Of a stretch of 64,000 nt of DNA, positions 46,179-46,582 are shown one piece after another. The stretch lies in the NCBI GenBank assembly GCA_963799845.1, contig CAWCYI010000006.1, forward strand, positions 1,376,001 to 1,440,000, given 5' to 3'. Under the pieces are notes generated by a model. The model was not told the origin of the DNA. It searched no databases and saw nothing but the letters and a program-made list of their open reading frames with translations. Position 1 is the stretch's first letter. Every line of letters starts with the position of its first letter. Made by a program: the position numbers and the translations under genes. The stretch comes from an uncultured Nitrososphaerota archaeon. Its GTDB lineage: Archaea; Thermoproteota; Nitrososphaeria; Nitrososphaerales; CADDZS01.

Positions 46179-46302
46179 TGCTGCCAGTCGAAATCTTGGG
46201 AGAGACAGATAAGCCTTTGCCAACATTCGTTCGCTGTTCCGTTCAAGGGACCAGATCAGTGCAATAGGCCTTGCGGAAGCTTCAGGACAAAATCGGTGAC
46301 GA

Positions 46303-46549
46303 TGGTGCCGGGGACGGGATTCGATCCCGCGACCCCCAGATCTCTTATCGCTTTCGAAGGATTATGAGTCACACCCTCTTACACTGGCGCGAACTTCATC
46401 TATTCGAATCACCGGTATGAGGGTTTTAGCCCTTTATTTTCTCGTGATCCTCAGAGGCTGGTGCTCTAACCAGGCTGAGCTATCGGGACGATAACATTCC
46501 TCGTCAGAATGTATTTCCGCATCGCCACCCCGGCCTTGAGGCCCCCGGC
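46303..46549 (-). tRNA. elongator tRNA-Met(CAU) with three BHB introns (8/9, 30/31, 37/38) and a possible fourth (7/8); CCA encoded
   Basis: spliced product GCCGGGGTAGCTCAGCCTGGTTAGAGCACCAGACTCATAATCTGGGGGTCGCGGGATCGAATCCCGTCCCCGGCACCA folds into a full cloverleaf; introns at 46482-46526, 46370-46457, 46342-46362. Confidence 0.92.
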
Positions 46550-46574
46550 ATTTTGGGCATTCCTCTTCTCGGCG

Positions 46575-46582
46575 TTAATAAG
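46575..46582 (-). promoter_or_regulatory. TATA box of the tRNA-Met gene
   Basis: CTTATTAA on the minus strand, 26-33 nt upstream of 46549. Confidence 0.55.

Follow-up and report, generated by a model that had tools for sequence, protein, structure and literature searches.

The window analysed here, a stretch of 64,000 nucleotides, belongs to a Nitrososphaerales MAG of 4.6 Mb (9 contigs, 86.7% complete). An aspartate kinase encoded nearby shares 92% identity with one from a Nitrososphaerales MAG. On its minus strand, between positions 46534 and 46303, it carries a tRNA gene cut into four exons by three introns. Removal of these introns (46526-46482, 46457-46370 and 46362-46342) yields a 78-nt cloverleaf, which ARAGORN, run on the computed product, identified as tRNA-Met(CAT). 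The intron positions are those given in a preliminary description of this DNA (8/9, 30/31 and 37/38). That description placed the gene start at 46549, which is off by 15 nt: the mature 5' end lies at 46534, and 46549 opens a repeat of the acceptor 5' strand located in the leader (46549-46543, hereafter the leader copy), which had been overlooked. The locus comprises the following features:

46574..46581, minus strand: putative promoter element, a TATA-like box (TTATTAAC) 32 nt ahead of the leader copy
46543..46549, minus strand: leader copy GCCGGGG, which repeats the acceptor 5' strand as a 'decoy' and is predicted to begin the primary transcript
46535..46542, minus strand: linker GCCTCAAG between the leader copy and G1, whose last base (G-1) falls in the outer helix of the 8/9 motif
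46527..46534, minus strand: exon 1, GCCGGGGT, tRNA positions 1-8, from the spliced-product call and the cloverleaf solver
46482..46526, minus strand: intron 1, 45 nt, site 8/9, motif 4/3/6
46458..46481, minus strand: exon 2, positions 9-30 (D arm and 5' part of the anticodon stem)
46370..46457, minus strand: intron 2, 88 nt, site 30/31, motif 4/3/4
46363..46369, minus strand: exon 3, ACTCATA, positions 31-37, with the anticodon CAT
46342..46362, minus strand: intron 3, 21 nt, canonical site 37/38, relaxed motif 3/2/2
46303..46341, minus strand: exon 4, positions 38-76, including A73 and an encoded CCA (46305-46303)
46289..46292, minus strand: oligo-T run downstream of the gene, possible terminator

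In the unspliced sequence, neither ARAGORN nor an Rfam scan at gathering thresholds found a tRNA anywhere in the window, and a permissive Rfam scan matched only the 3' part of the gene (14.2 bits), in line with the earlier suspicion that standard scanners might miss it. No ORF of at least 100 aa overlapped the locus. Genome-wide, the Rfam tRNA model returned 12 tRNAs, 11 of them with lengths of 90-141 nt and one as a 66-nt partial match. This gene and its orthologues within the genus encode the CCA end (46305-46303), which most other tRNA genes found in the genome do not.

Splicing motifs were scored on the unspliced sequence as the number of pairs in the 4-bp central helix, the outer helix and the inner helix, with a finder geometry that places each 3-nt bulge 3' of its own strand of the 4-bp helix. 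Introns 1 (4/3/6) and 2 (4/3/4) have two 3-nt bulges on opposite strands of a central helix with 4/4 pairs, the predicted cut following the second base of each bulge, and intron 3 (3/2/2) has a relaxed motif with 3/4, matching the single C:A mismatch reported before for the 37/38 intron. Flanking helices are present at all three introns (outer/inner 3/6, 3/4 and 2/2). By sequence, the first splice site of this genome could be read as 7/8 or 8/9, because intron 1 ends in T; it was fixed at 8/9 by the motif geometry and by orthologues whose intron ends in A, C or G. Strict motifs are not rare in themselves, as 118 relaxed candidates were counted in 351 nt, of which 3 were strict and 2 of these corresponded to real introns. 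The signal lies in the placement of the motifs exactly where removal restores a cloverleaf, and in their conservation.

A staged cloverleaf solver, in which introns were allowed at candidate motifs only and a cloverleaf was demanded, gave exactly one solution in the locus, with the top score of the genome (32). In a reversed-genome control, which is imperfect because reversal preserves helices, one locus reached 31 and the next 25. The solver recovered ~14 plausible tRNAs genome-wide and therefore does not constitute a census; it gave no solution for the tRNA-Ser gene of the same genome.

The motifs of introns 1 and 2 are independent of the other introns, and those of introns 2 and 3 compete for C32-C34. 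Once intron 2 is out, the outer helix of intron 3 grows from 2 pairs to 5 (3/5/2), which favours, and does not force, the removal of intron 2 before intron 3. The ordered splicing proposed earlier thus stood as regards the shared bases, and not as an obligatory order. Order dependence, in which a motif forms after removal of a neighbouring intron, has already been described (PMC8450103, in the part available). Other candidate elements were rejected. No motif was found for a fourth intron of 15 nt between the two GCCGGGG copies. For a box C/D guide RNA within an intron, the best Rfam match was snoU54 over intron 1 and exon 2, with 14.5 bits against a gathering threshold of 35 (E = 6.1). A conserved RNA inside the 88-nt intron gave weak Rfam matches only, and the interior had no conserved fold in 8 family members.

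Four congeners possess the same three introns between near-identical exons, with diverged intron interiors of different length; the gene of one congener (G005) is cut by the contig end, and another congener (G001) is unpublished. Exon mapping produced 22 good alignments from 30 loci, after exclusion of L016 and L017 (mis-windowed, later read by eye) and of L034, L035 and L039-L042 (not the tRNA-Met gene). Exons matched those of the present gene at 66-75 of 75 positions in the 22 orthologues, and the introns varied in length and sequence. Exon 1 was GCCGGGGT in nearly all orthologues, with A at position 7 in G021 and G072, and A at position 5 in G013. The 30/31 intron was found in 22/22 well-aligned orthologues (12-121 nt). 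The 8/9 intron of tRNA-Met occurred in five families, namely the family of the host (f1), three more detected by exon mapping, and f8, added later. The 37/38 intron was confined to the genus of the host and to genus g3 of the same family (G008). The 30/31 intron is ancient in the order, the 8/9 intron is common to five families, and the canonical 37/38 intron is the youngest of the three. The pair that joins exon base 26 to the intron in the central helix of the intron 2 motif is G:C in most families; it is G:U in G007, and the genus of the host and G008 have A:U, a series that reads, in the aligned sequences, as a compensatory path.

Intron lengths differed between families. The 8/9 intron measured 23-59 nt in f1 and 11-35 nt in the four other families, and the 30/31 intron 55-121 nt in f1 and 12-40 nt elsewhere; intron interiors were 2-6 times longer in f1 than in other families. 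The f1 loci (L013-L024), which come from a large-genome family, look like a case of lineage-wide intron expansion. A pattern search of 301 genomes of the order, allowing at most 30 nt between T8 and A9, retrieved 104 matches from 102 genomes; an insertion was present in 19 matches, and among these were 15/15 f14 genomes. The 8/9 site, first presented as unusual, is conserved in the tRNA-Met of five families and also occurs in tRNA-Ser; it is therefore probably present in public genomes.

A tRNA-Met gene of genus g3 (L023, G008:C75, minus strand, ~330 nt near locus position 1500) apparently has four introns, at 8/9 (59 nt), 30/31 (121 nt), 37/38 (26 nt) and 59/60 (48 nt, motif 3/5/6), compared with a maximum of three for archaeal tRNA genes in the literature ('up to three' in the accessible part of PMC8450103).

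The genome encodes the enzymes expected for processing of such a transcript, including RtcB, RNase P RNA and two EndA paralogues (PF01974). The 186-aa paralogue was closest to PDB chains 3p1z_B, 2cv8_A, 3ajv_B and 2zyz_B (E 3e-37 to 2e-33), all named tRNA-splicing endonuclease, and the other paralogue was more distant. These four chains are presumably crenarchaeal two-subunit endonucleases. Identical or near-identical flanks were observed on contigs C7/C8 and C4/C7 (e.g. C7 minus-strand index 203302 and C8 plus-strand index 2305), which suggests overlapping contig ends or a redundant assembly.

At the RNA level, four metatranscriptome runs from four studies each contained one contig (179-256 nt, >90% identity) covering the gene. 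These contigs span only 46303-46540, except for 21 nt of trailer in one run. They differ from the gene by substitutions at 19 places and by 5 indels, all located in introns and none in exons. Their 5' ends (46540, 46538, 46533 and 46527) stop 3-22 nt short of the leader copy, and the missing cover upstream of 46540 or downstream of 46303 proves nothing. No spliced junction was seen in the four runs, which consist of assembled contigs holding the unspliced form alone and in which mature tRNA pieces of 7-39 nt would go unmapped. The contigs fit a transcribed, unspliced precursor of close relatives, with DNA carry-over as another possible source.

The anticodon loop of the predicted product, CTCATAA, has seven nucleotides, with U33 before the CAU anticodon and a purine, position 37, after it. 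The product is of non-initiator type: it pairs G1 with C72 and A31 with U39, and lacks A1:U72 as well as the initiator's three basal G:C pairs in the anticodon stem. Searches of the genome by T arm, acceptor and motif found three CAT tRNA genes: the three-intron gene, one of initiator type and one whose acceptor begins with GGGCCCG. The GGGCCCG-type gene (G000 C6:37912-38061) has introns in the D arm and at 37/38 and is mis-called as tRNA-Gln by ARAGORN; its 40-nt 37/38 intron contains CTGA and TGATGA, which resemble box D and box C, respectively. The initiator-type gene (G000 C6:307943-308112), missed by both scanners, has A1:U72, an anticodon stem with GGG/CCC and two introns, one at 37/38 and one within the T loop. 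A further tRNA-like gene (G000 C8:78364-78439) has A1:U72 and an apparent 8-nt anticodon loop, for which ARAGORN reported a four-base anticodon (cttg). ARAGORN with introns allowed reported no CAT tRNA in the genome, whole-gene BLAST returned no second significant copy, and no intron-less elongator tRNA-Met was found; with the genome at 86.7% completeness, a further tRNA-Met may lie outside the assembly.

The anticodon and the non-initiator features agree with the earlier assignment to tRNA-Met, elongator Met being the probable identity and Ile2(CAU) the alternative. A73 and a normal cloverleaf are shared by the two non-initiator CAT genes, and ARAGORN labels any CAT anticodon as Met; the two identities could be exchanged, the three-intron gene being tRNA-Ile2 (with C34 converted to agmatidine) and the GGGCCCG-type gene the elongator tRNA-Met. 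A search for tRNA-Ile(GAT) by its loop motif, intended to settle Met against Ile2, gave only noise. The GGGCCCG acceptor start and the ACCGG/CCGGT anticodon stem of the other gene point to isoleucine, a GGGCCCG start with a G:C-rich anticodon stem being what we take to be typical of archaeal isoleucine tRNAs; the A31:U39 closing pair of the three-intron gene points to elongator Met, of which it is assumed to be typical. In addition, the tRNAscan-SE 2.0 supplement, in the portion available, contains 95-96-nt 'MetCAT' genes in a Nitrososphaera genome, possibly of the same type as the three-intron gene, with the length that this type has in f15. The exchanged assignment is unlikely on this evidence, and the three-intron gene is probably Met and the GGGCCCG type Ile2, as judged from these presumed isotype features. 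A decaying pseudogene with motifs arising by chance would be compatible with the density of strict motifs, which is about that expected by chance, and with the lack of spliced RNA in the four runs. It accords poorly with exons that stay near-identical across the order while introns vary, with the compensatory change in the intron 2 helix, with RNA contigs confined to the gene, and with the fact that BLAST and ARAGORN found no other elongator-type copy of this tRNA in the genome. Such decay is considered exceedingly improbable, and we hold with high confidence that the locus is a real archaeal tRNA gene with three introns.

The occurrence of the leader copy was examined across tRNA genes with and without the 8/9 intron, a copy being counted when at least 6/7 bases matched the acceptor 5' strand; by our own arithmetic, the chance of such a match in a 45-nt leader is ~5%. 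All tRNA-Met genes with an 8/9 intron (28/28) possessed the copy, 9-23 nt upstream of G1. This tally combines 13/13, 14/14 and 1/1 genes (the last by eye) and is distributed over f1 (9 genes), f4 (2), f8 (1), f10 (1) and f14 (15). Among tRNA-Met genes without the 8/9 intron, the copy was found in 3/39 (0/11, 3/26 and 0/2), and these three all have an f4-type leader and keep the 30/31 intron. In tRNA-Ser, among 30 of 37 matches, the copy was present in 11/13 genes with a motif-supported 8/9 intron and in 1/16 genes without intron; one pattern match without motif (G035) was left out. The two exceptions within these 30 matches, both from f8, combine an 8/9 intron with only a 5/7 copy. Overall, four genes (three tRNA-Met and one tRNA-Ser) have a leader copy without the intron. 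As relatives are not independent, the association between intron and copy rests on about five families and two tRNA types. The unpublished G001 contributes one of the 28 tRNA-Met genes, one of the 13 tRNA-Ser genes and one genus alignment, and the claims stand without it.

The linker between copy and G1 ranges from 2 to 26 nt, and neither its length nor its sequence is conserved between families. At positions 1-6 of full copies, the only substitutions are from C to T (three cases), which keep G.U pairing. Position 7 of the copy follows the true strand in 9/9 tRNA-Ser genes of f1 (A in 5, G in 4) among the same 30 of 37 matches, and departs from it in five other cases. In genes with the intron, A/T-rich boxes, located by eye, precede the copy by 31-35 nt; in intron-less genes they precede G1 by 31-34 nt. 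As this distance is kept to the copy and not to G1, the copy probably marks the 5' end of the transcript.

Two related observations concern other leaders. The tRNA-Ser-like gene of the host genome (L094, C4:146713-146898, minus strand), one of the 13 above, has a 14-nt 8/9 intron with motif 4/4/1 and an exact 8-nt copy of exon 1 located 28 nt upstream, with AAGGCAG following the copy and again following the intron; the remainder of this gene is heavily interrupted. The intron-less tRNA-Met genes of f15 (L074-L084) have a conserved leader, GCTGAGCTT or GCTGGGCTT, directly before G1. Its reverse complement matches the beginning of exon 2 (AGCTCAGC), a different leader-body pairing that might serve the 30/31 motif.

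In the model proposed for this soil Nitrososphaerales archaeon, a precursor of ~250 nt would be transcribed from the TATA-like box (46581-46574), starting at or beside 46549. A two-subunit endonuclease would cut the three introns at their BHB motifs, RtcB would join the exons and RNase P would remove the 15-nt leader. In the 8/9 motif, C3-G6 would pair with the 3' end of the intron (CCCG here; CTCG, CCTG and others elsewhere), and G-1, G1 and C2 would pair with G10-U12 in the outer helix. Since this motif uses acceptor bases 3-6, the seven-pair acceptor stem would have to be open in the precursor, and only three pairs would hold the 8-nt exon once the cut is made. The leader copy could then pair with the 3' acceptor strand, leaving the true strand free for the 8/9 motif, and could tether the 8-nt 5' exon to the tRNA body between cleavage and ligation. 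Following ligation, the true strand would displace the copy, and RNase P would cut at G1.

Folding calculations gave partial and mixed support to the role of the copy. Pairing between the copy and the 3' acceptor strand was predicted with P = 0.999 in the presence of the leader, and the true acceptor stem with P = 0.994 in its absence. Forcing the 8/9 motif cost 7.0 kcal/mol with the leader and 11.8 kcal/mol without it, i.e. 4.8 kcal/mol less when the leader was present. Forcing the 8/9 and 30/31 motifs together cost 21.0 kcal/mol with the leader, 19.2 kcal/mol without it and a mean of 16.2 kcal/mol with shuffled leaders. The central helix of the 8/9 motif was not predicted at equilibrium with or without the leader (P = 0.001 with it), and 15/60 shuffled leaders equalled or exceeded the real leader for this helix. 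Given this mixed outcome, the chances that the copy acts as proposed, by pairing and as a tether, are put at about even against a leftover or promoter origin.

According to the latter reading, the copy has no role in the RNA, and would be either a leftover of the event that created the intron (e.g. a partial 5' duplication) or the mark of a promoter that needs the same initially transcribed bases. The constant distance from the A/T boxes to the first GCCGGGG, be it copy or G1, is as this reading expects, and so are the lack of a modelled leader benefit for the two motifs together and the persistence of the copy in four intron-less genes; a leftover would also account for the tRNA-Ser gene of the host genome, in which the copy extends into a longer repeat (GCCGGGAT plus AAGGCAG, twice). 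A neutral remnant should decay, yet the copy is intact in all 28 tRNA-Met genes of five families, next to a linker free to vary, its positions 1-6 change only from C to T with pairing to G kept, and none of the 28 tRNA-Met genes examined has the intron without the copy. We therefore regard a copy devoid of RNA function as a serious but somewhat doubtful possibility. It might also be supposed that the upstream copy is the true exon 1, and that a larger intron, made of the linker, the second copy and intron 1, is removed. The copy is indeed placed relative to the promoter like G1 of intron-less relatives and can itself pair with the 3' acceptor strand. At the eighth base, however, the copy is followed by G, C, A or T depending on the lineage, while the downstream strand keeps T8 everywhere; the motif for such an intron scores 4/2/0 (by hand, below the listing threshold of the finder) against 4/3/6 for the downstream one; and the copy varies at positions 2, 3 and 7, in contrast to the nearly invariant exon 1. 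An upstream exon 1 is thus very improbable. Returning to the model of a copy that pairs and tethers, its combination with the gene, its introns, their transcription and their processing forms, taken as a whole, a likely explanation of the locus.

Multi-intron tRNA genes had been set, in the preliminary description, within a Thermoproteales frame; the host is a member of Nitrososphaerales (Thaumarchaeota), a group for which the part of PMC8450103 that was available reports multiple non-canonical introns, an intron model specific to the clade and a number of introns per gene of 'up to three'. The present gene resembles the multi-intron tRNAs of Thermoproteales and Thaumarchaeota in having up to three introns, strict and relaxed motifs, a two-subunit endonuclease of broad specificity and order-dependent motifs (PMC8450103, PMC4090602 and PMC4033280, as far as their available text goes). 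It differs from them in that its canonical intron is younger than the non-canonical ones at 30/31 and 8/9, and in that the 8/9 intron comes with an acceptor-strand leader copy. As in the tRNAs of Asgard archaea, for which the accessible part of a preprint describes many introns per gene, often missed by annotation, located at splicing-motif boundaries and gained repeatedly, the introns escape standard annotation; the phylum is a different one, and a few introns at junctions are mentioned in that part. Split and permuted tRNAs (Nanoarchaeum, Caldivirga, Thermofilum) likewise use an outside sequence that pairs, holds the pieces together and builds the endonuclease motif (PMC3218864 and PMC4033280, in the sections available). 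In contrast, the gene described here is contiguous and colinear, and its additional strand, a mimic of the acceptor 5' strand whose partner would be the mature 3' strand, does not itself form the motif.

The list of intron sites in the available part of PMC4090602 (3/4, 20/21, 22/23, 25/26, 29/30, 30/31, 45/46, 53/54, 56/57, 59/60 'etc.') does not include 8/9. Neither this site nor a leader copy is mentioned in the accessible portions of PMC4090602, PMC4033280, PMC8450103, PMC3218864, PMC3082918, PMC12397907 and the Asgard preprint; the site may nonetheless be listed in the primary catalogues, GtRNAdb or SPLITSdb. The gene itself is one more multi-intron tRNA, from a lineage largely missed by standard scanners, and what is new is the association between intron and copy.

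Somewhat more tentatively than the role of the copy itself, and at slightly less than an even chance, the 8/9 introns of Nitrososphaerales may be seen as a two-part module, in which an intron borrows acceptor bases 3-6 and an obligatory 5' pseudo-acceptor strand permits the motif and tethers the exon until ligation. In this order, a canonical 37/38 intron younger than two non-canonical ones goes against the usual view of canonical introns as old (PMC4033280, in the part available). The rule that emerges is that, in two tRNA types and five families, an 8/9 intron goes together with a leader copy at the probable transcript start. If the copy acts as proposed, it would represent a previously undescribed cis-acting element of pre-tRNAs, would explain how introns settle where their motif conflicts with the most stable helix of the tRNA, and would show how a motif can be built from the acceptor stem without loss of the tiny 5' exon. 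It would also offer annotators a simple signature of hidden 8/9 introns, and would permit a clean experiment on how the archaeal splicing endonuclease recognises its substrates.
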